Shown: positions 11,558-23,308 of the stretch, one piece after another
How positions within the stretch are numbered: position 1 is the first letter of the stretch
Layout of the letters: every line of letters begins with the position of its first letter
Assembly (NCBI GenBank): GCA_964599725.1
Contig: CAZRGT010000016.1
Span: 34,351-98,350, forward strand
Origin: an uncultured Gemmatimonadaceae bacterium
Lineage (GTDB): Bacteria; Gemmatimonadota; Gemmatimonadetes; Gemmatimonadales; GWC2-71-9
Direction of reading: 5' to 3'
Length of the DNA: 64,000 bases
Notes under the pieces: generated by a model
Seen by the model: only the letters and a program-made list of their open reading frames with translations
Database searches by the model: none
Told to the model about the DNA's origin: nothing
Made by a program: the position numbers and the translations under genes

Positions 11558-14080
11558 CTACCGCGTGGACCTCGCCCCGACGAGGGCCTGGAAGCGGGGT
11601 TCATCCTGCAGTCCGCGCCACCACCAGCCCACGTCCACACCGGGCCCGAAGTGACCCGGATGGCCTGCGGCGAAGCGCTTCAGAATCGCGATCGCTTCGT
11701 CCTTGTCCCCGAGGAGGACGTAGCTGTACGCGACGATGGTCGTGAGATCCTCGTTGGGGTCTACCTCGTGCGTGAGTCCCGCGCGCGCCCGGCGCAGCAC
11801 GTTCCGCGCGCTATCGCCGAGCCCCGCGCGCGCGAGCACACCCCCGACCCTCAATTGCCCGTACAAGCGTTCGTACGGCCGACGATCCGCGGGCGCCAGC
11901 GTGTCCAGCCCGGCCGCCTCCTGCCACGCTCGACCGACATCCGGCGCCACCCCCGGCGTCACCAGCAGATCGAGCTGACATTCCGCGAAGCGGAAGTCCT
12001 GGGGGAAGCGCCGGCCGCCCTCGTCGCACCAGCGCTGGGCCTGCGTGAATTGCTCGAGGTCGAGCGAGCCGTTGACCAGCCGATACAAGACCAGGTTGGC
12101 CACGCTGAGGTAGGCGTCCTCTTCATAGGCCCGGCGGGCCGCCAGGATCGCCGCCGCCACGTCGTCGAATTGGTAATACAAGTGGCTGAGCGTGGCGTGC
12201 GCGCTCGCCAGCGCCGGGTCCAGCCCGACCGCGGTCTCGAGATCCTGCCGGGCGTCGCTCAAGAGCTTCGCGCGCTCGGTTGGGTCGGGCGTCACGGCAA
12301 GAATGTAGTGCCAGTAGCGCAGGTTCCCCCGCAGCTCGAGCGCCTTCGGGTCGTTCGGGGCGATCTCCAACGCCCGCGCCGTGTGCCGCAACCCGTCCTC
12401 GATGTGCTCCACCGCCGCCTTGGGGTCGCTCTCGGCCAACCGCGATTGCCGGTAGGCTATCCCGGCCCGCAAGATGAGCGGCTCGGTCCATTGCGGATCG
12501 AGCGCCGCGGCCTGGACCCCCAGCGTATCGGCGCGCGCGAACGCCCGCACGGCGCCCGCCATGCTGTCCGCCACGAGGTACGCCTCGGCGTCCTTACGCG
12601 ACTTCTCGGCCTGCTGCACGAGCACCCACGCCTGTAGTTCCTTGGTACCGGCGCGCTGCTCCCGGAGCCGCACTTCCTGACCCAGCCGGGTGCGCAGGAA
12701 TCCGGCCACCCGCCGCACCAGCGTGTCCCGGACCGCCAGCAGGTTGCCGCCAGGCTCTTCAAAACTCTGCCGGTCCACGTCCGCGCCGCTCGCTCCGTCC
12801 ACCAGGCGAGCCGCAACCCTCACGCGCCCCCCAACCTCCTCCACGCTGCCCTGAATGAGGCTCCCCACGTGCAGGGCCCGCGCGATGCTGTCGCCCGATA
12901 GCGTACTGCCCCGATAGGCCGCGACGCCGTTCTTGGAGATTACCTGCAGCCCCGGCACGCTGCCGAGTTGGTCGATCAATGCTTCCGTGAGCCCGTCGGC
13001 GAGATAGCCCAGGGAGGAATCCCGACTCAAGTCCTCGAAATAGCGTACCGCGATATTGCGCGGATCGAGAGCGCCCAGGGCGACGCCGCCTGCAGGCTTC
13101 GGGGCGAGAAAACGGCGAGCTCCCCACGCCACAACTGCGAGCAGCAGCACCGCCGGCACCGCCCAGAGGAGGCGGCGTCGCCCGCCGCCTGCCCGTTTTG
13201 GCGCCTCCGCGACCTCGCCGGTCCGGCGCCGCACCGCAGCCGTCACGGTGGATGGCGCGGCGAGCGCCTCAGCGAACATGATGACCGTCGGGAAGCGGTC
13301 GGCGGGGACCTTGGCCAGCGCCCGCATCAGCGCGGCTTCCATTGTCTCAGGGATCGTGTCCCGCACGATCGACGGCGGCGACACCACGGCCATCGAGTGC
13401 CGGGCGATGATCGCCTGCACGTTCGGGCCCGTGAACGGCGGCTGGCCCACCAGCATCTCGTAGACAACGCACGCAAGACTGTACTGGTCGCTGCGTCCAT
13501 CGATGACGTCACCGGTGCTCTGCTCGGTGCTCATGTATGCCGGCGTGCCGATGACCGTTCCGGTCTGCGTCAGCTGCTGCTGTTCCACGGCCGAGGCGGC
13601 CCGGGCGATTCCGAAGTCGGCCACCACCGCGCTGCCCCCGGACAGCATGATGTTCTCGGGTTTGATGTCCCGATGGACGACGTCGTGGCTGTGAGCGTAC
13701 CCCAGCGCACTCGCGACCTCGGACGTGATCTTGATGACGTCCTCTTGCGGCAGCTGCTTCTCACGGTCCAGGCGGTCCCGGAGCGACTCGCCCTCGACGA
13801 ACGGCATGACGTAGAAGAGCGAGCCCGCCGCTTCCCCCGAGTCATACAACGGCAGGATGTGGGGGTGCTGCAGCCGGGCGGCGATCTCGATTTCGCGCAG
13901 GAAACGATCGGGACCGATCGCGGCCGAGATGTCCGGATGGAGGACCTTGATGGCCACTTTGCGGCGGTGTTTCAGGTCTTCGGCCAGATACACCGTAGCC
14001 ATACCGCCGCGTCCCACCTCCCGCTCCAGGGCATAGCGGTCGGCGAGAGCGTCGCGCAGCGTGTCGAAGAGGTCGCTCAA
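11558..14080 (-). CDS. Membrane Hanks-type Ser/Thr kinase with extracytoplasmic TolB-N-like and TPR-like region
   Basis: GRGGMATVY, VAIK, HRDIKPEN, DFG, GTPAYM; one TM segment; IAVRYFEDLS; probable TTG start 14080. Confidence 0.9.
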   Translation of the reverse strand: MSDLFDTLRDALADRYALEREVGRGGMATVYLAEDLKHRRKVAIKVLHPDISAAIGPDRFLREIEIAARLQHPHILPLYDSGEAAGSLFYVMPFVEGESLRDRLDREKQLPQEDVIKITSEVASALGYAHSHDVVHRDIKPENIMLSGGSAVVADFGIARAASAVEQQQLTQTGTVIGTPAYMSTEQSTGDVIDGRSDQYSLACVVYEMLVGQPPFTGPNVQAIIARHSMAVVSPPSIVRDTIPETMEAALMRALAKVPADRFPTVIMFAEALAAPSTVTAAVRRRTGEVAEAPKRAGGGRRRLLWAVPAVLLLAVVAWGARRFLAPKPAGGVALGALDPRNIAVRYFEDLSRDSSLGYLADGLTEALIDQLGSVPGLQVISKNGVAAYRGSTLSGDSIARALHVGSLIQGSVEEVGGRVRVAARLVDGASGADVDRQSFEEPGGNLLAVRDTLVRRVAGFLRTRLGQEVRLREQRAGTKELQAWVLVQQAEKSRKDAEAYLVADSMAGAVRAFARADTLGVQAAALDPQWTEPLILRAGIAYRQSRLAESDPKAAVEHIEDGLRHTARALEIAPNDPKALELRGNLRYWHYILAVTPDPTERAKLLSDARQDLETAVGLDPALASAHATLSHLYYQFDDVAAAILAARRAYEEDAYLSVANLVLYRLVNGSLDLEQFTQAQRWCDEGGRRFPQDFRFAECQLDLLVTPGVAPDVGRAWQEAAGLDTLAPADRRPYERLYGQLRVGGVLARAGLGDSARNVLRRARAGLTHEVDPNEDLTTIVAYSYVLLGDKDEAIAILKRFAAGHPGHFGPGVDVGWWWRGLQDEPRFQALVGARSTR

Positions 14081-14189
14081 GAGGTCATGGGCGGCACGCC
14101 CGAACGATACGACCGGTGCCCCGGTGTCGCCACGCCTACGCCCCCGCTCTTGTCCGAAGCCCACCCGCCACCCTACTAATAGAGAGCCG

Positions 14190-15983
14190 ATGACCCGCCC
14201 ATCCCTCTCGTTCCAGGGGCCGCTCGCGCGTGCTCCGAGTATCACGCGTCTCTTCATCGCGACTTTTGTCGCGGTGGCGCTGGCGGGGTTCACGATCACC
14301 CTTCTCTCCTGGCTCGGCGCGCGACGCACCGAGCGCTCCACCATGGCGATGCTCGCCACGCTCGATCGGCTGCACACCTTGGCTCCCCAGCCAGCGTTGG
14401 ACACGGAGCGCGACCGGATCCGGGCCATCGCGGAGGATTTGAACGACGAGGCGCAGCAAGCGGCCCTGGCGACCACCATCATCTTCGTCGCCGTCCTCGC
14501 CTCCCTCGGCATCGGACTGGTGTACAGCCGCCGCCGATTGGCCGAGCCGTTCGGTGAAATCGTGGCGGCACTGGAGCGGGTGGCGACCGGAGAGTACGGC
14601 GTGCGCCTCCCGGAGCAGACCTCGGAGGAGTTTCTCGCTCTCGCCCAGGGCGTGAATCGAATGGGGGAGACCCTCGCCTGGCGGGAGCGGATTCAGGATT
14701 ACCAGTCGCGACTGCTCGGCGCCCTCAACGCCACCACGCGGGAAGGCTCCGGGCTGGCCCCCGCCCTCGACGTTCTGGCCGAGGCGACGCAGGCGTCCGG
14801 ACTCGTCTTGTACCAACCGGACTATGAAGCGAACGAATGGAGTCCCACCGCCGCGCGCGGCGCGGAGCCGCGGTCCGTGTCCCGGATCGTGGTGCGCGAG
14901 CTGATCGGCGATGGCACGGCCGGCGTGCTGCACCTGGCGGGCGAACAGAACACCGTCGCCCGCCAGAAGCTGCAACTTCCGGCCACGCCGAGCCACGAAG
15001 TGGCGGTTGCCCCGTTACGAACCGCGGGGCGGCTCGCCGGGCTCCTGGTCGCGATTCCACCCGACAGCTTCAGTTCCGACCAGATGGACGCCTTGGCGCT
15101 CGCGCTCCCGAACCTGGCCATCGCCTGCGAGCGGGAGTCGGCGTTTCAGCACACCCGCCGGCTCGCGACGGAGGTGCGGCGGACCGCGCAGTATCTGGAG
15201 GAGCAATCCGACGAGCTCACTCGGCTGAACGAGGAGCTGGCCAAGGCGAACCGCCTGAAGAGCGATTTCCTGGCCAACATGTCGCACGAACTGCGCACGC
15301 CGTTGAACAGCATCATCGGCTTCAGCGACATGCTCCTGACCCAAGAAGTCGGCCAACTCAACGGGATGCAACAGGACTTTCTGGAAACCGTGGCGCGCAA
15401 CGGCCGCCACCTGTTGCAGCTCATCAGCGAGCTGCTCGATCTCTCCAAGATCGAGGCCGGGAAGCTGCAGCTCACCCCCGAGTCGCTCGACCTGCGGGAC
15501 CTGTTACGGGAGGCCGCCGAAAGCGTGCGGGCCCAGACCGAGAAGCGACGGCACACGTTGCAGGTCGACACCCCCGCCGAGCCGCTCGTGGTTCCCGCCG
15601 ATCATGTGCGCGTGCGACAGGTGCTGCTCAACCTCCTGTCGAACGCGATCAAGTTCACCCCCGAGGGCGGCCAGGTTCGCCTCCTGGGCCGGGAAGAGGA
15701 CGGAGGAGCCCGGATCGAAGTGATCGACAGCGGCATCGGCATCGCCCTCGAGGATCAATCCAAACTGTTCAAGGAATTCATGCAGGTCGACACATCGGCC
15801 AGCCGCCACTACGAGGGCACGGGCCTCGGACTCGCACTCTGCAAGCGACTGGTGGAGCTGCACGGCGGACGCATCGGCTGTGAGAGCGCGCGCGGTCTCG
15901 GCAGCACGTTCTGGTTCACCCTGCCGCGAGAATCCCCGACATCCGGGGGGGCGCCGCAGGTCCCCACGCAGGGAGGGTCCTGA
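14190..15983 (+). CDS. Sensor histidine kinase (2 TM-HAMP-GAF-like-HisKA-HATPase)
   Basis: FLANMSHELRTPLN, NLLSNAIKFT, DSGIGI, GTGLGL. Confidence 0.93.
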   Translation: MTRPSLSFQGPLARAPSITRLFIATFVAVALAGFTITLLSWLGARRTERSTMAMLATLDRLHTLAPQPALDTERDRIRAIAEDLNDEAQQAALATTIIFVAVLASLGIGLVYSRRRLAEPFGEIVAALERVATGEYGVRLPEQTSEEFLALAQGVNRMGETLAWRERIQDYQSRLLGALNATTREGSGLAPALDVLAEATQASGLVLYQPDYEANEWSPTAARGAEPRSVSRIVVRELIGDGTAGVLHLAGEQNTVARQKLQLPATPSHEVAVAPLRTAGRLAGLLVAIPPDSFSSDQMDALALALPNLAIACERESAFQHTRRLATEVRRTAQYLEEQSDELTRLNEELAKANRLKSDFLANMSHELRTPLNSIIGFSDMLLTQEVGQLNGMQQDFLETVARNGRHLLQLISELLDLSKIEAGKLQLTPESLDLRDLLREAAESVRAQTEKRRHTLQVDTPAEPLVVPADHVRVRQVLLNLLSNAIKFTPEGGQVRLLGREEDGGARIEVIDSGIGIALEDQSKLFKEFMQVDTSASRHYEGTGLGLALCKRLVELHGGRIGCESARGLGSTFWFTLPRESPTSGGAPQVPTQGGS

Positions 15984-16387
15984 TGGCCACCATCGTCGTA
16001 GTGGAGGATCAACCGGACAGCTTGAAGCTCCTTTCCACGCTGCTGTCACTGCGTGGACACCTCGTGATTCCGCTGGCCAGCGGCGACGGACTGATTGAAA
16101 CGATGCGCCGGCCGTCTCCCCCACCGGATCTCGTGCTGCTCGATATCCAGCTCCCCGGTCGAGATGGGTATGCGTTGCTGCAGGATCTGAAGGCACTCGA
16201 GGGCGACCACCGCTGGAAGGTGGTCGCCCTCACGGCGCACGCGATGCCGGCGGATCGCGCGAAGGCCCTCGCCGCCGGCTTCGACGGCTACATCACGAAG
16301 CCGATCGACATCAGGACGTTCCCGACCGAGGTCGCGGCGCACTTGCCGGCGGGACCGGGGGGGGAGGGACCGGCGGGCGTGGCGTAG
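15983..16387 (+). CDS. Single-domain response regulator (CheY/DivK-like)
   Basis: VVED, LLDIQLP, LTA, YITKPI; TGATG overlap with kinase. Confidence 0.93.
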   Translation: MATIVVVEDQPDSLKLLSTLLSLRGHLVIPLASGDGLIETMRRPSPPPDLVLLDIQLPGRDGYALLQDLKALEGDHRWKVVALTAHAMPADRAKALAAGFDGYITKPIDIRTFPTEVAAHLPAGPGGEGPAGVA

Positions 16388-17306
16388 TGGCCGGCCGCGG
16401 CGGCGTGGGCGCCATCCCGAGCTTCCGCAGCTCCACGTCGCCGGTCACGGTGGTGAGCTTGATGGTGCGACCACCCTTCCCCAGCGTGCCCGCAATCGCG
16501 TGTGACGCGAACTTGCCCGAGACGACCAGCGGATAGTCGCTCGCAATGTCTCCCGCGACGGTATGGCCCTCCACAACGGCATCCACGTTGTCCGGCAGGA
16601 CGACGACGGCATCCCCGTGCACGGTTGTGACGTTGACGTCGCCCGGATCAGCAAAACCACGCATCGTCGCGTTCACGTCGCCGTTGACAGTCGCCGCCCG
16701 GACCGGACCGGCGCTTGTTTCGACCGTGATGTCGCCATTGACCGTGCCGACGACAACCGGCGCCGAGACACCGTTGACTTTGACATCGCCGTTCACGGTG
16801 GACGCGTCCAGCTTGACGCCGCGCGGCAACTGCACGGTAAACACCACGGCGACGTCGTTGCCGTGCAATCCGCCCTCAGTGGAATAGTGGCCGTCGGGTC
16901 CGCACTCGACCGCGTGCCCGGGCCACATCGCACACACGGTGAGACCGCGTTCCGATTCGGCGGTGACGATCCGCACCGAATCGACCCGCGAATGCTTGTA
17001 ACTGCGATCGGCGACGATCTGGACCTGCCGGCCTTCGCCGGGCTCCACGGCAATCGAGCCATTGATGTTGCGGAGCCACAGCGTGCGCTGGACCGGGACC
17101 GCCGTCACGTAGCTCCAGGGTTCGGCGTGGTGGCGGTCCGGCGCCAGAAAATCCGTGTCGAACTGCTGACGGAGCCCTTCCAACTGAGTGCGTCCGCGCC
17201 CCACCAAGCGGAGGACGAACAACCCGCCAACGATTACGATCCCGAAGATCATTGCGCCGCGCAGAATCTCTCCGCGCCACCGTAGCCAGAATTCCTTGCC
17301 GTTCAT
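16311..17306 (-). CDS. DUF4097-like (putative adhesin beta-repeat) membrane-anchored protein
   Basis: N-terminal TM; repeated STVNGDV/TVNGDI/TVHGD/TVTGDVEL; Pro-rich tail. Confidence 0.85.
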   Translation of the reverse strand: MNGKEFWLRWRGEILRGAMIFGIVIVGGLFVLRLVGRGRTQLEGLRQQFDTDFLAPDRHHAEPWSYVTAVPVQRTLWLRNINGSIAVEPGEGRQVQIVADRSYKHSRVDSVRIVTAESERGLTVCAMWPGHAVECGPDGHYSTEGGLHGNDVAVVFTVQLPRGVKLDASTVNGDVKVNGVSAPVVVGTVNGDITVETSAGPVRAATVNGDVNATMRGFADPGDVNVTTVHGDAVVVLPDNVDAVVEGHTVAGDIASDYPLVVSGKFASHAIAGTLGKGGRTIKLTTVTGDVELRKLGMAPTPPRPATTPRPPVPPPPVPPASAPRPRSGTS

Positions 17307-17349
17307 ATGAAGCCCCCCGCAGGGTGACGATGCCAAAGCTCGCCGACCC

Positions 17350-17654: not shown

Positions 17655-17682
17655 AATGCCTCCTTGATTTCTCATCTCGTAT

Positions 17683-17708
17683 GACGCAACCGCGCTTCCG
17701 ATCGTTGC
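17683..17708 (-). promoter_or_regulatory. ECF-sigma-type promoter for small protein
   Basis: GCAAC-N17-CGTC. Confidence 0.45.
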
Positions 17709-17752
17709 GGCAACGGTGTCCGAGACGCGTCAGGGCTATTAGCTTTGCTGCC

Positions 17753-18523
17753 GTGACCGGCCTCGCGCGATTCCGGGATCTCCTCACTCAGCTCATTCTC
17801 CGGGACCTGAAGTCCCGCTATAAGCAGACCTATTTCGGGGCGCTGTGGGTGTTCGGCCGCCCGCTGGTCGAGCTGGGCGTGTACGTGCTCGTGTTCGGGG
17901 CGTTTCTTCGTGCACCGTCGGACGGCGTGCCGTACCCGCTGTTCGCGTTCTCCGGTGTCGTGCTGTGGAGTTTCGTCTCCGGCGCCATCTCTCGCGGCGC
18001 CCGCAGCGTCCAAGGTGAGGGAGGCCTCGTCGCCCACGCACCGTTTCCCAAGGCGACGCTGCCCCTGGCGGCGATCGTAGGGGCGTTGCTCGATTCCCTC
18101 CTCGCCGCCGCCATGTTGGGCCTGCTGCTCGCCGTCCAACACGTCGTTCCGTCCCCGAGCGCCTGGCTGTTGCTGCCGATTGTCGCGATCCTCGGCATCA
18201 TGGTCACGGGGCTGGTGTTGATCGGCTCGGCGCTGAACGTCTTCTATCGCGACGTCGGACATCTGGTCGATCTCGGAGTGCGTGTCTGGCTGCTGCTCAC
18301 ACCGGTCGCTTATGCCCGCTCGGTGGTGCCCCCACAGTATCAGACGCTTTACAACCTCAATCCGCTCGTTTCGCTGTTCGACCTCGCCCGAGCCGCCCTG
18401 CTGGGCACGGGGGTGGTTCGTCCCGAGGCGATGTGGTACCCACTCGGGGTGGGGCTCGTGTTTCTCGCCGTCGGTGTGGTGGTGTTCCGCGCGGCCGAGC
18501 CGTATTTCGCCGAGTCGGTCTAG
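17753..18523 (+). CDS. ABC-2 permease, Wzm/TagG type
   Basis: RDLKSRYKQTYFGALW, FPKATLP, YRDVGHL, LNPL; about six TM segments; GTG start. Confidence 0.92.
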   Translation: MTGLARFRDLLTQLILRDLKSRYKQTYFGALWVFGRPLVELGVYVLVFGAFLRAPSDGVPYPLFAFSGVVLWSFVSGAISRGARSVQGEGGLVAHAPFPKATLPLAAIVGALLDSLLAAAMLGLLLAVQHVVPSPSAWLLLPIVAILGIMVTGLVLIGSALNVFYRDVGHLVDLGVRVWLLLTPVAYARSVVPPQYQTLYNLNPLVSLFDLARAALLGTGVVRPEAMWYPLGVGLVFLAVGVVVFRAAEPYFAESV

Positions 18524-18527
18524 GCTC

Positions 18528-19745
18528 ATGGCGATCACCGTATCGGGAGTCTGGAAGCGCTACCGGCTGCGGAGCGAGTCGCTCAAGGAGCTGGTGATCG
18601 GACTGCTGCCGCGCCGACGACGCGGCCCGCCGCCCCGGCCCAAGTCCCTGTGGGCGTTGTCGGACGTGTCGTTTCATGTGGAGCGCGGCTCGACCTTCGC
18701 CCTGGTGGGAGCCAACGGGTCGGGGAAGTCGACCATGCTCAAACTGATCGCCGCCATGATGAAGCCCACGCGCGGATCGATCCATGTGGACGGCCGGCTG
18801 TCCCTGCTCAGTTTTCTGGGCGGCTCCTTCCATGGCGACCTGACGGGGCGGGAGAACGTCTTCCTGGAAGGGGCGCTGCTCGGCCTCACACGGAAGGAGC
18901 TGCGCGCCAAGCTGGACGCCATTTTCGACTTCGCCGGCCTCGAGGAATTCACCGACGTGCCGGTGAAGTTCTACTCCTCGGGAATGGCGCTCCGGCTCGG
19001 GTTCGCGATCGCGGCGCACATCGAGCCAGAGGTGCTGCTGATCGACGAAGCGTTCGCCGTCGGCGACACGGCATTCCGCGACCGCTGCCTGGGGAAAATG
19101 CTGGACTTCAAGGCGGCGGGCACCACCATGGTTCTGGTGTCACACGAGCGGTACCTGGTCGAGCAGCTGTGCGATACCGCCGTGCTGCTCGACCACGGAC
19201 ACACCGTGGCGAACGGGCGTCCCGAGGAAGTGTTCGCGGCCTACGAGCGGGTCAACGAAGCGGCCGAAGCGGCGACGGACGAAGACGATCTCGAGGGCGA
19301 ACCGGTGCGCTCTCCGCTCCAGATCGAGCGGGTCGAGATCACGGGCGGTGAAGGCGAGGACGTGCCCCTGTTCCGACCCGACGACGCCCTCGTGGCGCGG
19401 GTGCACCTCCGGGCGCAGCGGGACATCTCCGGCGGATCCCTGGGGATCCAGGTCGCGCGCGAATGGCATGTCCTGCACGGGACGCGCTGCAACCGCCAGG
19501 GCATCGAGATCAACGCTCGAGCCGGCGAGCGACTCACACTCGAGATCGAGTACCGCCCGCTCTCGCTGGCGCGCGGGTCCTACGCGCTCCATGTCCTCGT
19601 GTACGAGCACCGACTCGCGGTGGAACCAGTGCTGGTCCTGAAGCGGGCGGCGCGCTTTCGGGTCACGCTCCCTGAGGCGGAGGGCGTGGGCCTCATCCGT
19701 CTCGCCCACACCTGGCGCCTGTTGAACGGCGGCGACGCGCCCTAG
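18528..19745 (+). CDS. ABC ATPase, Wzt/TagH type with C-terminal Wzt_C-like domain
   Basis: GANGSGKST, YSSGM signature, LLIDE, LVSH; about 160-aa C-terminal beta domain. Confidence 0.92.
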   Translation: MAITVSGVWKRYRLRSESLKELVIGLLPRRRRGPPPRPKSLWALSDVSFHVERGSTFALVGANGSGKSTMLKLIAAMMKPTRGSIHVDGRLSLLSFLGGSFHGDLTGRENVFLEGALLGLTRKELRAKLDAIFDFAGLEEFTDVPVKFYSSGMALRLGFAIAAHIEPEVLLIDEAFAVGDTAFRDRCLGKMLDFKAAGTTMVLVSHERYLVEQLCDTAVLLDHGHTVANGRPEEVFAAYERVNEAAEAATDEDDLEGEPVRSPLQIERVEITGGEGEDVPLFRPDDALVARVHLRAQRDISGGSLGIQVAREWHVLHGTRCNRQGIEINARAGERLTLEIEYRPLSLARGSYALHVLVYEHRLAVEPVLVLKRAARFRVTLPEAEGVGLIRLAHTWRLLNGGDAP

Positions 19746-20743
19746 GCGCCGGCACGGGCGCGCTCACTGGTCCACCACGCGAGCGCCTTCCTCAGTCCGC
19801 CGGACGGCTGCAAGTGCCGCAGCACCGCCAGGCGCAGCCCGAGCGCGCGCTCGAGATCGTACGGCGTCACGCGCCCAGCCAGAGCCACCGGTGGCTCCAC
19901 ACCCGCCAGCTGCGTGGCCGCTCCGAGCCACGCTCCCGCGGCTGCCCCGTCCACGATCTCTTTGGCATCCAGTCGGCGTGCGATCTCGGACCAGTCCACC
20001 GGTACACCGCTCGCCCAGATGACCGCCGCATCAAACAGCCGCACCAGTAGGAATGCATAATCGGGAATCAACAGGCTATGCGCCGTGGCGCTCCAGAACA
20101 ACTCCGTTGCCGACGGCACGCGAAACCGGATCCCCGAGCGTTCCACGTCGATCCCCGCATCGTGGTAACGCTGCCAAGCCACGCCCGGGTTCACTCCCTG
20201 AGCGTATGTGGTGTGGAGCTCGACGCCGACCCGGCGTTGACTCCACAGGGTGGGCAAATGGTGATGTTGCGGTCGCGGGGGCTTGGTTGGTGATGTCCGA
20301 TCATATCCCCGCCTCCGGAGGTCATGCCAAACCTCCCGGGCGTGGGCCAGCGGAACCAGAACATCAACGTCATTGGTGACGCGGGCGTCGGCGAACGGAT
20401 AGCGGTCCACGGCGAGCCGTCGCGCCACACCCTTCAAGAACACCGCCGGCATGTCGATCTCATGAAAGATCTCCGCCAATGCCTGCGCCTCCGCTTCGAT
20501 CAGCAGATTCCGAGCGGTCTCTTCACGCGCCTGCGCGGAGACCCACGCAGCCAGCTCCGGGTCGATTCGGTCCATGACCCCCAGTTGGCGGAGCCGTCGG
20601 TACAGCCAAATGGCACACCCCTCGAACGCCACTAGGCGCCTCATCCCTGTCCCCTCGGTGGTCCCCCACGCGGGGGCCAAGTGCTCAGGCGGGAGACCCC
20701 CGCGGAATCGGAGGGTATCGATCAGCAGCCGCGCCGAATTCAC
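19742..20743 (-). CDS. Nucleotidyltransferase family protein (NTP_transf_5-like, as found in lasso/RRE clusters)
   Basis: FLKGVA...Y...R...DVDVLV, HHLP...VELH. Confidence 0.85.
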   Translation of the reverse strand: MNSARLLIDTLRFRGGLPPEHLAPAWGTTEGTGMRRLVAFEGCAIWLYRRLRQLGVMDRIDPELAAWVSAQAREETARNLLIEAEAQALAEIFHEIDMPAVFLKGVARRLAVDRYPFADARVTNDVDVLVPLAHAREVWHDLRRRGYDRTSPTKPPRPQHHHLPTLWSQRRVGVELHTTYAQGVNPGVAWQRYHDAGIDVERSGIRFRVPSATELFWSATAHSLLIPDYAFLLVRLFDAAVIWASGVPVDWSEIARRLDAKEIVDGAAAGAWLGAATQLAGVEPPVALAGRVTPYDLERALGLRLAVLRHLQPSGGLRKALAWWTSERARAGA

Positions 20744-21174
20744 GCTTCGACGACGGCGGGGCGCGCCTCTGGAAACCGGGCGATGACGGTATGGCGTTGC
20801 GGGTGCTCGGGATGGGACTCCAGATAGGGCTCACCACCGCGGACCAGCCAGGCATGGGCCCCCAATGGCGACGGACCGGACTTGTGAACGCCAATCCAGA
20901 GCTCGACCGGGCGGCCGGCGCGACGCAGGAGATGATACAGGACGGCCGCGCGCTTGAGGCAGGTCCGGCGCCACGGATTGGGCAGGTTGCGGAGCAGGCG
21001 GTCCACCCACCGGGCCAGGGATGCGTCGTCCAGATCCTGAGCCGGGGGCCGGCTGCCGCGCCCGCCCAACCAGCCCGCCAGACGGGAGAAGGAAACGAGA
21101 TAGAGCAACGGTGGGACCACGGCCACCATGGCGGTGGCCCGCAGGCGCCACGTCAACGGCAGGCGCGCCGTCAC
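20740..21174 (-). CDS. Lasso-type leader peptidase (B2, transglutaminase-like)
   Basis: TCLKRA catalytic Cys, LWIGV, AHAW catalytic His; GTGA overlap. Confidence 0.9.
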   Translation of the reverse strand: MTARLPLTWRLRATAMVAVVPPLLYLVSFSRLAGWLGGRGSRPPAQDLDDASLARWVDRLLRNLPNPWRRTCLKRAAVLYHLLRRAGRPVELWIGVHKSGPSPLGAHAWLVRGGEPYLESHPEHPQRHTVIARFPEARPAVVEA

Positions 21175-21443
21175 GCGCCCTCGACCACCAGCAGGTCTGC
21201 CGTGCGACACGTGTCGAGGAATTGCCGCACGCTGGCTTCTGCCTGCTCCGGCGTCACCTCGTATTGCTCCACGAGCAAGCGCACCAGCTCGTCCACGGAT
21301 CGCGGCGCTTCGAGCGCCTGCAACAGGATCAGGCCGCTCTCGGTCACGGAAAAATAGCGGCGCGTTCCCAGATGCAGCACGACCCCGTCGCCTTCGACGT
21401 CGGCGAGGCGCAAGTCCGGATGTCGGATGTAACGTTGGCTCAT
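21171..21443 (-). CDS. RiPP recognition element (PqqD/B1 family)
   Basis: VEGDGVVLHLGTRRYFSVTESGLILLQAL...VEQYEVTPEQAEASVRQFL, 90 aa. Confidence 0.92.
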   Translation of the reverse strand: MSQRYIRHPDLRLADVEGDGVVLHLGTRRYFSVTESGLILLQALEAPRSVDELVRLLVEQYEVTPEQAEASVRQFLDTCRTADLLVVEGA

Positions 21444-22357
21444 GTGACGAGCTCGATCAGACGGTTCGGTCGGGAGAACAAGTCGCGCCCCAACGTAACC
21501 CGGTAGCAACGCGCCTGCCCGGTCAGTCGTGTCAGCACGTTCAGGTGGTCCTGCGCCAGGTCGGGCTCGAGCATCACCCATGCGGACCACCGCACCAGCT
21601 CCGCCACCGCCCCCCGCCGATCCAGGGGCTTGGCGCTGGTCTTGGCGTTTCCCACGGCCGTGAAAATAACGACCTCCGGGTCGACGAGGGGGGTCCAGAC
21701 ACCCCCCAGATCCTCCGGCCGGTATCCGGTCTTCCCCCGATCGGGGAGGGATACCCCCCCGGCTCGGGCGAGTAGCCCCAGGCCGCCATCGCGCAGGGCG
21801 ATGGGCGCGCGACAGGTGTGCACGATGATGCGATCGCCGCGGCGCTCGAGGAACGCCGCGTCATCTGTTCCTACGCGCCAACCCGACGCCGCCAACAGGG
21901 CGGCGGTCGTGGACTTTCCCGCATGCGCGTTGCCGGCCACGAGCCAGCCACGGCCCTGCGGGTCAATCGCCGTCGCCGCGTGCAGGTGATACCAGCCCAC
22001 CCGCCGCAGCAAGACGATCAGGACCACCATCAGGAAGGTGCGGGTACAGAGCTCGAGCTTTTCAACCGCGGCCGGGGAAAGACGGATCGACGCCGTAGCA
22101 GCATCGCCAGGAACTTCGGCGATCGCGGGGGCTTCCTCCCACAACACGCGGAGGCCCCGACCTCCGGGGCCTCGCGCGAAGCGCACCTGGGGTTGCTCGA
22201 AAACGACCTCCGTCAGCGCCGGGATCGCGGCGGCCGAGACCGAGACGTCCAGAACCAGGCCGGGTGGCGCCGCGAGGGATAACCTCGCAAGCCATCCCTC
22301 GAGGACCGCCTTGACGGAGACGTCGCTGCATCGAATCTCGATGGCGGGGGCAGACAT
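21440..22357 (-). CDS. HPr kinase-related P-loop kinase
   Basis: HLHAA, GNAHAGKSTT Walker A, GTDD acidic pair. Confidence 0.85.
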   Translation of the reverse strand: MSAPAIEIRCSDVSVKAVLEGWLARLSLAAPPGLVLDVSVSAAAIPALTEVVFEQPQVRFARGPGGRGLRVLWEEAPAIAEVPGDAATASIRLSPAAVEKLELCTRTFLMVVLIVLLRRVGWYHLHAATAIDPQGRGWLVAGNAHAGKSTTAALLAASGWRVGTDDAAFLERRGDRIIVHTCRAPIALRDGGLGLLARAGGVSLPDRGKTGYRPEDLGGVWTPLVDPEVVIFTAVGNAKTSAKPLDRRGAVAELVRWSAWVMLEPDLAQDHLNVLTRLTGQARCYRVTLGRDLFSRPNRLIELVT

Positions 22358-22451
22358 GGCTCAAAAAAGCCTGCTCAAAGCGCCAAACGCCAGGCCGCGG
22401 GAAGCGACCTGGCGCATGGAGGTAGAGACCCTACAGGACTAGGAGCTGCGA

Positions 22452-22485: not shown

Positions 22486-22653
22486 TCACGCCGAGCGACC
22501 GCCCTGCTGCGTGCGGCTGGCCAAGTTGCCCTGGCTGTTGGTCGAGTTGCCGCGCGTCGGCTGGCCGAGCGACACGAGCGTCACGCCTTCCAGCGACGCC
22601 TCTTCTGTCAGCTTCGGGGCCACGAAGGGTTTGCGCGTTGGTTTCTGCTCCAC
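22486..22653 (-). CDS. RiPP precursor peptide, 55 aa, lasso-type leader
   Basis: GGGAGG RBS 7 nt before GTG; MEQKPTRKPFVAPKLTEEASLEGVTL-VSLGQPTRGNSTNSQGNLASRTQQGGRSA; FxxPxL and penultimate Thr; first gene of RRE/B2 operon. Confidence 0.85.
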   Translation of the reverse strand: MEQKPTRKPFVAPKLTEEASLEGVTLVSLGQPTRGNSTNSQGNLASRTQQGGRSA

Positions 22654-22691
22654 GATGAGCCTCCCTTTTCCGGTGAATGTCGCCGCTGGGT

Positions 22692-22867: not shown

Positions 22868-23212
22868 CTAACGCGGCAAAGTGAGCCAGCCAGCCACGAG
22901 TCCTCCAACTTGAGCGACGATCGCGATGGGCAAGGACAACCGTCGCGCGCTGGCATGCTCAGACTCGATGACCAAGAAGGTGACGAGGAGCGCCGCAAAG
23001 AAGGGCCAATTGGCCTGCAGATGGAAAAAATGAAGGATGCCGTCCCCGGTCCAAGCGGCGGCGAAGCCACCAGCGAGCGAACCCAACAGCATGGCAACCT
23101 GTTTGGCACGGCGAAACGGTAGCGCGCCGAGCGGCAGGAACACCACGAGGCCGACCAGCGCAGCCAGGACCGCGCAAGCGAATCCAACCGCATATCCGAG
23201 GACTGTCTTCAT
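22868..23212 (-). CDS. Small integral membrane hypothetical protein (about 4 TM)
   Basis: MKTVLGYAVGFACAVLAALVGLVVF...; AGAGG RBS right after tRNA. Confidence 0.7.
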   Translation of the reverse strand: MKTVLGYAVGFACAVLAALVGLVVFLPLGALPFRRAKQVAMLLGSLAGGFAAAWTGDGILHFFHLQANWPFFAALLVTFLVIESEHASARRLSLPIAIVAQVGGLVAGWLTLPR

Positions 23213-23224
23213 AGGCCTCTTACG

Positions 23225-23308
23225 TGCCCGGGGCAGGACTCGAACCTGCATGGGGTTGCCCCCAAGGGATTTTAAGTCCCTTGCGTCTACCGATTTCGCC
23301 ACCCGGGC
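23225..23308 (-). tRNA. tRNA-Leu (anticodon TAA), CCA not encoded
   Basis: GCCCGGG acceptor stem, TGGCGAAATCGGTAGACGC D-arm, GGGA-CTTAAAA-TCCC anticodon arm, long variable arm, GTTCGAGTC T-loop. Confidence 0.96.

Follow-up and report, generated by a model that had tools for sequence, protein, structure and literature searches.

Gene content of the locus

The window, by which we mean the whole 64-kb stretch of DNA analyzed here, was assigned to the Gemmatimonadota by the initial annotation, and this assignment was correct. Its GC content is 68%. The minus strand carries an operon in which the gene of a short precursor peptide (A) comes first and is followed by those of an HprK-like kinase (K), a PqqD-type RRE (B1), a lasso-type B2 protease, and an NTP_transf_5 nucleotidyltransferase (N). 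This A-K-B1-B2-N operon is translationally coupled, with 4-nt start/stop overlaps (ATGA or GTGA) at K/B1, B1/B2, and B2/N. A Wzm/Wzt transporter gene pair lies next to it on the plus strand. The features are listed in Table 1.

Table 1. Features in and around the A-K-B1-B2-N operon, with positions in the window
Feature	Position	Strand	Size or evidence
Ser/Thr protein kinase with TPR	11561-14692	minus	
Histidine kinase	14061-15983	plus	
Response regulator	15983-16387	plus	
DUF4097/LiaG-like protein	16311-17336	minus	
Wzm-type ABC-2 permease, Wzt partner	17681-18523	plus	Pfam ABC2_membrane 1.1e-14
Wzt-type ABC ATPase with C-terminal Wzt_C	18528-19745	plus	ABC_tran 1e-19, Wzt_C 6.8e-11
NTP_transf_5 nucleotidyltransferase (N)	19742-20743	minus	333 aa; Pfam PF14907 4.8e-22
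Lasso-type B2 leader peptidase (transglutaminase-like Cys protease)	20740-21174	minus	Transglut_core3 3.5e-18
PqqD-type RRE (B1), discrete	21171-21443	minus	90 aa; Pfam PqqD 7e-15
HprK-like peptide kinase (K)	21440-22357	minus	305 aa; P-loop GNAHAGKST, DD motif
GC-rich hairpin, 12 bp	22387-22415	minus	In the 128-nt precursor-kinase spacer; RNA folding
Precursor peptide gene (A)	22486-22653	minus	55 aa + stop; translation, 20 homologs, synonymous changes
Precursor core, codons 27-55	22489-22575	minus	
Ser28 codon of the precursor	22570-22572	minus	
Precursor leader, codons 1-26	22576-22653	minus	
Shine-Dalgarno sequence GGGAGG	22660-22665	minus	6 nt 5' of the precursor's GTG; read from sequence
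Predicted membrane protein	22868-23209	minus	113 aa
tRNA-Leu(TAA)	23224-23308	minus	

The precursor gene and its peptide

The precursor gene translates as M/VEQKPTRKPFVAPKLTEEASLEGVTLVSLGQPTRGNSTNSQGNLASRTQQGGRSA followed by a stop codon. The longest ORF at this place has 69 aa and begins at a GTG 14 codons upstream; GGGAGG precedes the 55-aa start instead, and a Shine-Dalgarno-like sequence and a GTG start are kept at the equivalent place in the orthologs of three related loci (L017, L001, and L020 in our numbering). Because the DNA is 68% GC, an ORF of 55 codons is by itself weak evidence of a gene. The family search returned 20 proteins from public assemblies, the window's own included (E = 1e-10 to 1e-27; 63%–100% identity), and the codon differences that are synonymous only numbered nine against L017, 17 against L001, and 12 against L020. 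Judged by these comparisons, the 55-aa ORF is a real gene and not a chance ORF. Neither Pfam nor NCBIfam held a family matching the precursor, and a scan for the sigma-70 promoter consensus around the gene returned nothing.

The initial annotation described the gene as hidden and expected gene callers to miss it or to misplace its start. It is not hidden, because 15 of the 20 homologous proteins were called at 53–55 aa, and the protein collection includes the window's 55-aa product, with an identical start. Of that expectation, the misplaced starts do occur, since the other five proteins are over-extended at the N-terminus, but outright omission was not borne out.

The leader carries F10-x-x-P13-x-L15 and T25, that is, F-17/P-14/L-12/T-2, which is the canonical spacing of lasso leaders. 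Translation thus confirmed the FxxPxL motif and the Thr at −2 that had been described, and every residue count given earlier for leader and core was right. The 29-aa core contains five Ser and three Thr, three Asn and four Gln, three Arg, and a penultimate Ser. Asp, Glu, Cys, and aromatic residues are absent from the core; Glu occurs solely at E2, E17, E18, and E22.

The cores of the 20 proteins follow the pattern VSxGxP[TV]R.N...NLA[ST]R..QGGRxA, a conservation that is unusual for the wider family. Ser28 (core position +2) follows the conserved leader Thr by three residues and is invariant in this subfamily, and most other Ser/Thr positions vary; residue 46 (the S/T of LA[ST]R) is likewise conserved. 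The penultimate residue is Ala in 11 proteins, Ser in six, Val in two, and Thr in one. All 20 peptides, that of the window included, have Ala as the last residue, so that the C-terminal Ser site of the paeninodin type is absent from them, and none has an acidic residue at core positions 7–9.

Other cleavage positions were considered and rejected. A cut between Arg and Gly of P-T-R-G would place T33 at −2 and Gly at +1; T33 is Thr or Val in the homologs, whereas T25-L26 is invariant, and this cut would moreover leave a core without an acidic residue. An upstream cut that brings E22 to positions 7–9 would land inside FxxPxL.

The hairpin in the spacer between precursor and kinase folds at −59.8 kcal/mol (z = −3.7; none of 200 shuffles was equally stable), and its sequence recurs in the relative L001. 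A consensus scan for intrinsic terminators around the precursor gene flagged none; the hairpin was passed over because it has no long U run. We infer that it acts as a partial terminator/attenuator or as an RNA-stabilising element.

Enzymes of the operon and the adjacent transporter

Matches of the kinase to Pfam Hpr_kinase_C (0.0048) and to NCBIfam HprK_rel_A (1.7e-6) were weak and fell under the curated cut-offs, and the kinase homologs carry precomputed matches to PF27840 ScmC. Since sequence comparison with the PDB yielded at best marginal HprK matches (E = 0.13), a structure model and Foldseek were needed. The AF2 model had a pLDDT of 92, and its Foldseek matches were PEPCK and HprK/P 1ko7. 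Residues G142, G147, K148, S149, T150, D165, and D166 are invariant in the family alignment, in agreement with the motif of BsfK (PMC10368454).

The ATG of B1 overlaps the kinase stop codon (ATGA). Searched against the PDB, the RRE family profile matched PbaB1 (9x90_B, 2.3e-11), TbiB1 (5.5e-8), TfuB1 (3.7e-5), and LppB (9x8z_B, 0.013). The likely GTG start of B2 overlaps the B1 stop, the longest ORF beginning at 21210. B2 scored 68.2 bits with NCBIfam lasso_biosyn_B2 (NF033537; cut-off 33), and across 59 homologs its catalytic Cys (TCLxR) and His (AHAWL) show a conservation of 95% or more. Pfam scans of the operon and neighbouring genes found no signal peptidase, and B2 is the sole peptidase in the operon. 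The GTG of N overlaps the B2 stop codon; N comes after B2 in 51 related loci, and a PDB sequence search with it found no solved relative.

The Wzt gene, whose probable start is M83 of the ORF beginning at 18282, is convergent with the operon. Its partner Wzm matched galactan/KpsM-type permeases of NCBIfam under the cut-off and co-occurs with Wzt. The pair, which occurs in two arrangements, adjoins the module in about 20 of the 58 loci and is absent in about two thirds. In L047 and L050, Wzm/Wzt are co-directional with the operon and packed tightly after N, with Wzt_C present.

Related loci and the absent cyclase

A scan of species-representative genomes with the kinase alignment identified 72 loci, 65 of them in Gemmatimonadota. 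The K-B1-B2-N order recurs in about 58 Gemmatimonadota loci, with kinase identities of 37%–94%. In divergent Gemmatimonadota loci the flanks are unrelated housekeeping genes. The flanking genes thus differ between them, and the module is therefore self-contained and travels as A-K-B1-B2-N; because divergent relatives hold it in different genomic contexts, the operon may be mobile. Neighbourhood clustering of the related loci, in which many "families" were antisense shadow ORFs of high-GC genes, gave no additional conserved partner and no glycosyltransferase, sulfotransferase, or second peptidase.

The SGGxDS PP-loop motif was absent from all frames of the 64-kb window, and none of its large ORFs was an Asn_synthase. 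An HMM built from four Pfam-confirmed outgroup cyclases had no match in the window, in loci L001–L069, or in any Gemmatimonadota locus; the 58 related loci were covered to about 10 kb on each side. An Asn_synthase/GATase ORF was present in only four loci, all outgroup (Roseivirga, Vulcanimicrobiota, Acidobacteriota, and Micromonospora). These cyclases adjoin related kinases, and the candidate precursors there have acidic core residues; those of L071 and L074 have Asp at core position 7 and are lasso-compatible.

The window therefore has three features of a lasso BGC (leader motif, PqqD RRE, and B2) and lacks two others, a cyclase within 64 kb and an Asp or Glu in the core. The earlier claim that the core is unable to form a lasso ring agrees with the absence of an acid at positions 7–9 in 20 of 20 proteins and with the cyclase searches; as predicted from these data, the core cannot form such a ring. 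Because the cluster has no ring-forming enzyme, a linear phosphorylated peptide is the most likely product.

The leaders KKPVLKAYGSLKEQTL of L073 (8293-8490, Vulcanimicrobiota) and KKPYSTPVLTVYGTVQQLT of L074 (9265-9489, Acidobacteriota) resemble the Gemmatimonadota leader. This likeness fits a descent of the cyclase-less family from lasso clusters.

The precursor family in Gemmatimonadota

An iterative profile search of small ORFs gave 74 precursors, 66 of them distinct, from 58 Gemmatimonadota loci; not all of the 58 related loci yielded a homologous precursor. The number per locus ranges from one to three, and most lie directly upstream of the kinase; in L041, L049, and L052 the gene is on the other strand or at another place in the locus.

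The initial annotation had proposed comparing the cores behind this leader motif across Gemmatimonadota. Among the 66 precursors the leader is shared and the cores diverge. The leader, (R)KPFVxPxLxEEASLxxVTL, is highly conserved, with Thr at −2 in 63 and Leu at −1 in 62. The cores are 4–40 aa long, hypervariable in sequence, and rich in Gly, Ser, Asn, His, and Arg. Their most conserved feature is Ser at +2, found in 47 of 66 (p = 2e-28 against core composition); Ser or Thr occupies this position in 55, and Gly follows at +3 in 35. The C-terminal residue is Ser or Thr in 35 (p = 4e-9), an enrichment that suggests a paeninodin-like C-terminal phosphosite in many members of the family. Asp or Glu at core positions 7–9 occurs in only nine of the 66, and cores of 4–9 residues cannot form a lasso.

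The window has one precursor alone. The close relatives L001, L017, and L020 have a second one, which in many cases is rich in His and has Ser as its last residue. Two or three tandem precursors with a common leader and unrelated cores occur in L001 (10277-10441), L017, L020, L008, L034, L016, L006, and L009; an example is ISGGSPTRVHGESHKVHGKNNESHGHSHHS. These carry (GH)n repeats and poly-Asn runs and mostly end in Ser, which suggests metal-binding products. Short cores with exactly two Cys, such as LSCVDPNDPACQSI and ASCDPVTGNGCIAT, were seen in L064, L042, L066, L051, L057, and L049 and hint at disulfide-looped linear products. In L052 (8328-8670, minus strand), from an uncultured Gemmatimonas, three tandem precursors and the kinase operon are on opposite strands, and the leaders of these precursors are more divergent (KKxFxAPxLRxES.L).

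Comparison with known phosphorylated peptides

The closest parallel in working is that of the Linear Polyphosphorylated Peptides (LPPs), published in May 2026 (Popov et al., Nat Commun 2026, PMC13381572). Their lppA-K-B-S-D-N clusters occur in Paenibacillus alginolyticus and other Bacillota, to which they are stated to be restricted, and are located in capsule loci. The clusters have no cyclase; besides a kinase and an RRE they encode an NTP-transferase, a SipW-like peptidase, and an MsbA-like pump. LppK places up to four phosphates on core Ser3, and LppN was inactive in that study (PMC13381572). Our system likewise lacks a cyclase and has an HprK-like kinase, a discrete PqqD RRE, an NTP-transferase (N is likened by description), and an ABC exporter, together with a conserved lasso-like leader, a hypervariable C-terminal part, and an association with polysaccharide-type genes.

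The LPP precursor motif is YxxPxVLxHQxIxFETxxS (PMC13381572). The window leader matches it in register at six places (the aromatic residue, Pro at +3, aliphatic residues at +5 and +11, Thr at +15, and Ser at +18) and mismatches at the HQ, F, and E positions. In the register [YF]xxPx[VL]x5[IL]x3TxxS, the Ser that follows the leader Thr by three residues coincides. Because the leaders align in register, Ser28 is the positional equivalent of LppA Ser3.

The two systems differ in several respects. The leader protease is a B2 cysteine protease here and a SipW-like signal peptidase I (LppS) in the LPP clusters; the transporter is Wzm/Wzt (ABC-2 with Wzt_C) here and the MsbA-like LppD there. The motif begins with Phe instead of Tyr, the cores have 4–40 aa whereas LPP precursors have 35–200 aa, and the hosts are Gemmatimonadota and not Bacillota. 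By profile E values, the RRE is far nearer to lasso B1 proteins (PbaB1, 2e-11) than to LppB (0.013).

Phosphorylated lasso peptides of the Bsf type are known from the bsf cluster of Bradymonas sediminis, a lasso cluster that contains B2 and in which BsfK depends on B1 to phosphorylate core Ser3 (Duan et al. 2023, PMC10368454). It shares with the window K, B1, B2, a YxxPxL-type leader, and the kinase motif G..G.GKS...DD, and the Bsf phospho-Ser also lies near the leader/core junction. Bsf, however, has a macrolactam cyclase and yields a lasso, whereas the window has neither a cyclase nor an acidic acceptor; the Bsf leader has Ile at −2 and Ser at +3 of the core, against Thr at −2 and Ser at +2 in the window.

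In the paeninodin and pseudomycoidin lasso peptides of Firmicutes (Zhu et al. 2016; Zyubko et al. 2019; reviewed in PMC8498205), the kinases act on the precursor while it is linear and target its C-terminal Ser (paeninodin by PadeK, ThcoK, SyanK, and pseudomycoidin), and the nucleotidyltransferase PsmN adds hexoses to the phosphate of pseudomycoidin (PMC8498205). The HprK-like kinase, B1, B2, and nucleotidyltransferase N are common to that group and the window, and the nearest solved RRE, PbaB1, belongs to it. In that group a C protein cyclises the peptide and the phosphate sits on a C-terminal Ser, in contrast to the window peptide, which ends in Ala and comes from a cluster without cyclase. 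Literature searches for lasso peptides in Gemmatimonadetes, and the RRE-Finder paper for HprK-associated RREs, yielded nothing specific.

The system is LPP-like in its working and falls outside several LPP criteria. On the sequence comparisons above, it looks like a separate lineage of lasso origin in which B2 was retained, a parallel derivative of a phosphorylated-lasso cluster. Its novelty is below what the initial annotation assumed, because cyclase-less RiPPs with kinase, RRE, and NTP-transferase were published in May 2026. What is new is the processing by B2, the Wzm/Wzt association, and the Gemmatimonadota-wide spread, the kind itself having been described months earlier.

Proposed pathway and alternative explanations

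We consider it probable that the A-K-B1-B2-N operon makes a linear, cyclase-independent RiPP, that the ORF encodes its precursor, and that this peptide is (poly)phosphorylated. In the proposed pathway, the 90-aa PqqD RRE would bind the leader at FxxPxL, and the HprK-like kinase would phosphorylate Ser28, possibly several times, on the RRE-bound precursor. The NTP_transf_5 enzyme may decorate the phosphate further, as PsmN does with hexoses. The B2 cysteine protease would then cut after Leu26, with Thr at −2, and release a hydrophilic, cationic, linear core of 29 aa. The adjacent Wzm/Wzt ABC-2 transporter would export the product, and Wzt_C might recognise its phosphorylated end. No macrolactam would be expected to form, as the core offers no acidic acceptor and there is no cyclase nearby. 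That Wzt_C might read a phospho-Ser end is a reasonable idea, because the Wzt CBMs of E. coli O9a recognise a phosphate-containing chain terminus (PMC3482155).

The peptide is very probably a kinase substrate, because the gene of the HprK-like kinase is the next one; to that extent the proposal of the initial annotation stands. Its emphasis on multiple sites and on the penultimate Ser fared less well, Ser being present there in only six of the 20 proteins. We regard it as unlikely that the kinase modifies several sites of the core, or a penultimate or C-terminal Ser in the manner of paeninodin, instead of Ser28. The core does offer eight Ser/Thr, S/T46 is conserved in the subfamily, the paeninodin, ThcoK, SyanK, and pseudomycoidin kinases target a C-terminal Ser (PMC8498205), and the C-terminal Ser/Thr enrichment of the family (35/66) counts against the Ser28 model, as do the 11 precursors without Ser/Thr at +2 and the position of the Ser at +2, not +3, under the canonical B2 cut. 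Yet all 20 subfamily proteins end in Ala, the penultimate Ser is a minority state, Ser28 is invariant where most other Ser/Thr vary, and the characterised kinases load one residue (Ser3 for BsfK and LppK, the C-terminal Ser for PadeK) and not many. Another idea, that the peptide is a glycan primer or carrier whose phospho-Ser is extended by N and other enzymes and which Wzm/Wzt export as a component of a surface polymer, seems to us quite improbable. It draws on the conservation of Wzt_C in both the convergent and the co-operonic arrangement, on the phosphate-containing termini recognised in E. coli O9a (PMC3482155), on the hexoses added by the N protein of pseudomycoidin, and on the capsule loci of the LPP clusters. 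It is entirely inferential, however; the conserved module has no glycosyltransferase genes, and the transporter is missing at about two thirds of the loci.

The lasso-type leader, RRE, and B2 invite the view that this is a true lasso peptide, with its cyclase elsewhere in the genome, a non-canonical ring site, or an upstream cleavage, and the cyclase search spanned 64 kb here and about 10 kb per side in the relatives. We judge this very unlikely, as the core has no Asp or Glu, E22 could reach positions 7–9 only through a cut within the RRE-binding FxxPxL, family cores go down to 4–9 aa, and 58 Gemmatimonadota loci are without a cyclase that four outgroup loci have beside the kinase. The architecture is that of a phosphorylated-lasso cluster minus the cyclase, which favours a decaying remnant that no longer makes a functional product. 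That the operon is such a remnant is hardly credible, given that about 58 species-level genomes, with kinase identities of 37%–94%, have it whole and with its translational coupling, that its catalytic residues are conserved, that the leader is strongly constrained while the cores diversify and change is biased to synonymous sites, and that precursor genes are duplicated at many loci.

The broadest form of the proposal, namely that B2-processed linear phospho-peptides with hypervariable cores of 4–40 aa evolved independently across the phylum from lasso clusters losing their cyclase and bear a phospho-(glycosyl)-serine end read by Wzt_C, is speculative, and we doubt that it holds as a whole. 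If Wzt_C does read that end, peptide export would have borrowed the "terminal cap recognition" of polysaccharides, with a possible link between ribosomal peptides and surface glycopolymers; the Wzm/Wzt association is a testable idea for the exit of the peptide from the cell. Cyclase-less kinase-dependent RiPPs have hitherto been defined by a leader protease of the signal-peptidase type. If the proposal of a linear phosphopeptide is true, such RiPPs extend from Bacillota to Gemmatimonadota, a poorly cultured soil phylum, and the same chemistry runs on unchanged lasso B1/B2 machinery, which would support a repeated conversion of lasso into linear phosphopeptide pathways. The at least 66 short, diverse cores behind one leader would be a natural library for the substrate rules of the kinase and B2.

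Genomic neighbourhood

Just 5' of the precursor gene lies the gene of the 113-aa predicted membrane protein, which has no Pfam family. It is kept in the syntenic relative L001 (114 aa) and does not co-occur in divergent loci. The tRNA-Leu(TAA) gene separates a galactokinase gene from the cluster; insertions at tRNA genes are common. Beyond the ABC transporter genes there is a regulatory neighbourhood (11558-17336) with the Ser/Thr protein kinase, the histidine kinase, the response regulator, and the LiaG-like protein of Table 1. The LiaG-like gene remains beside Wzm/Wzt in 15 loci.
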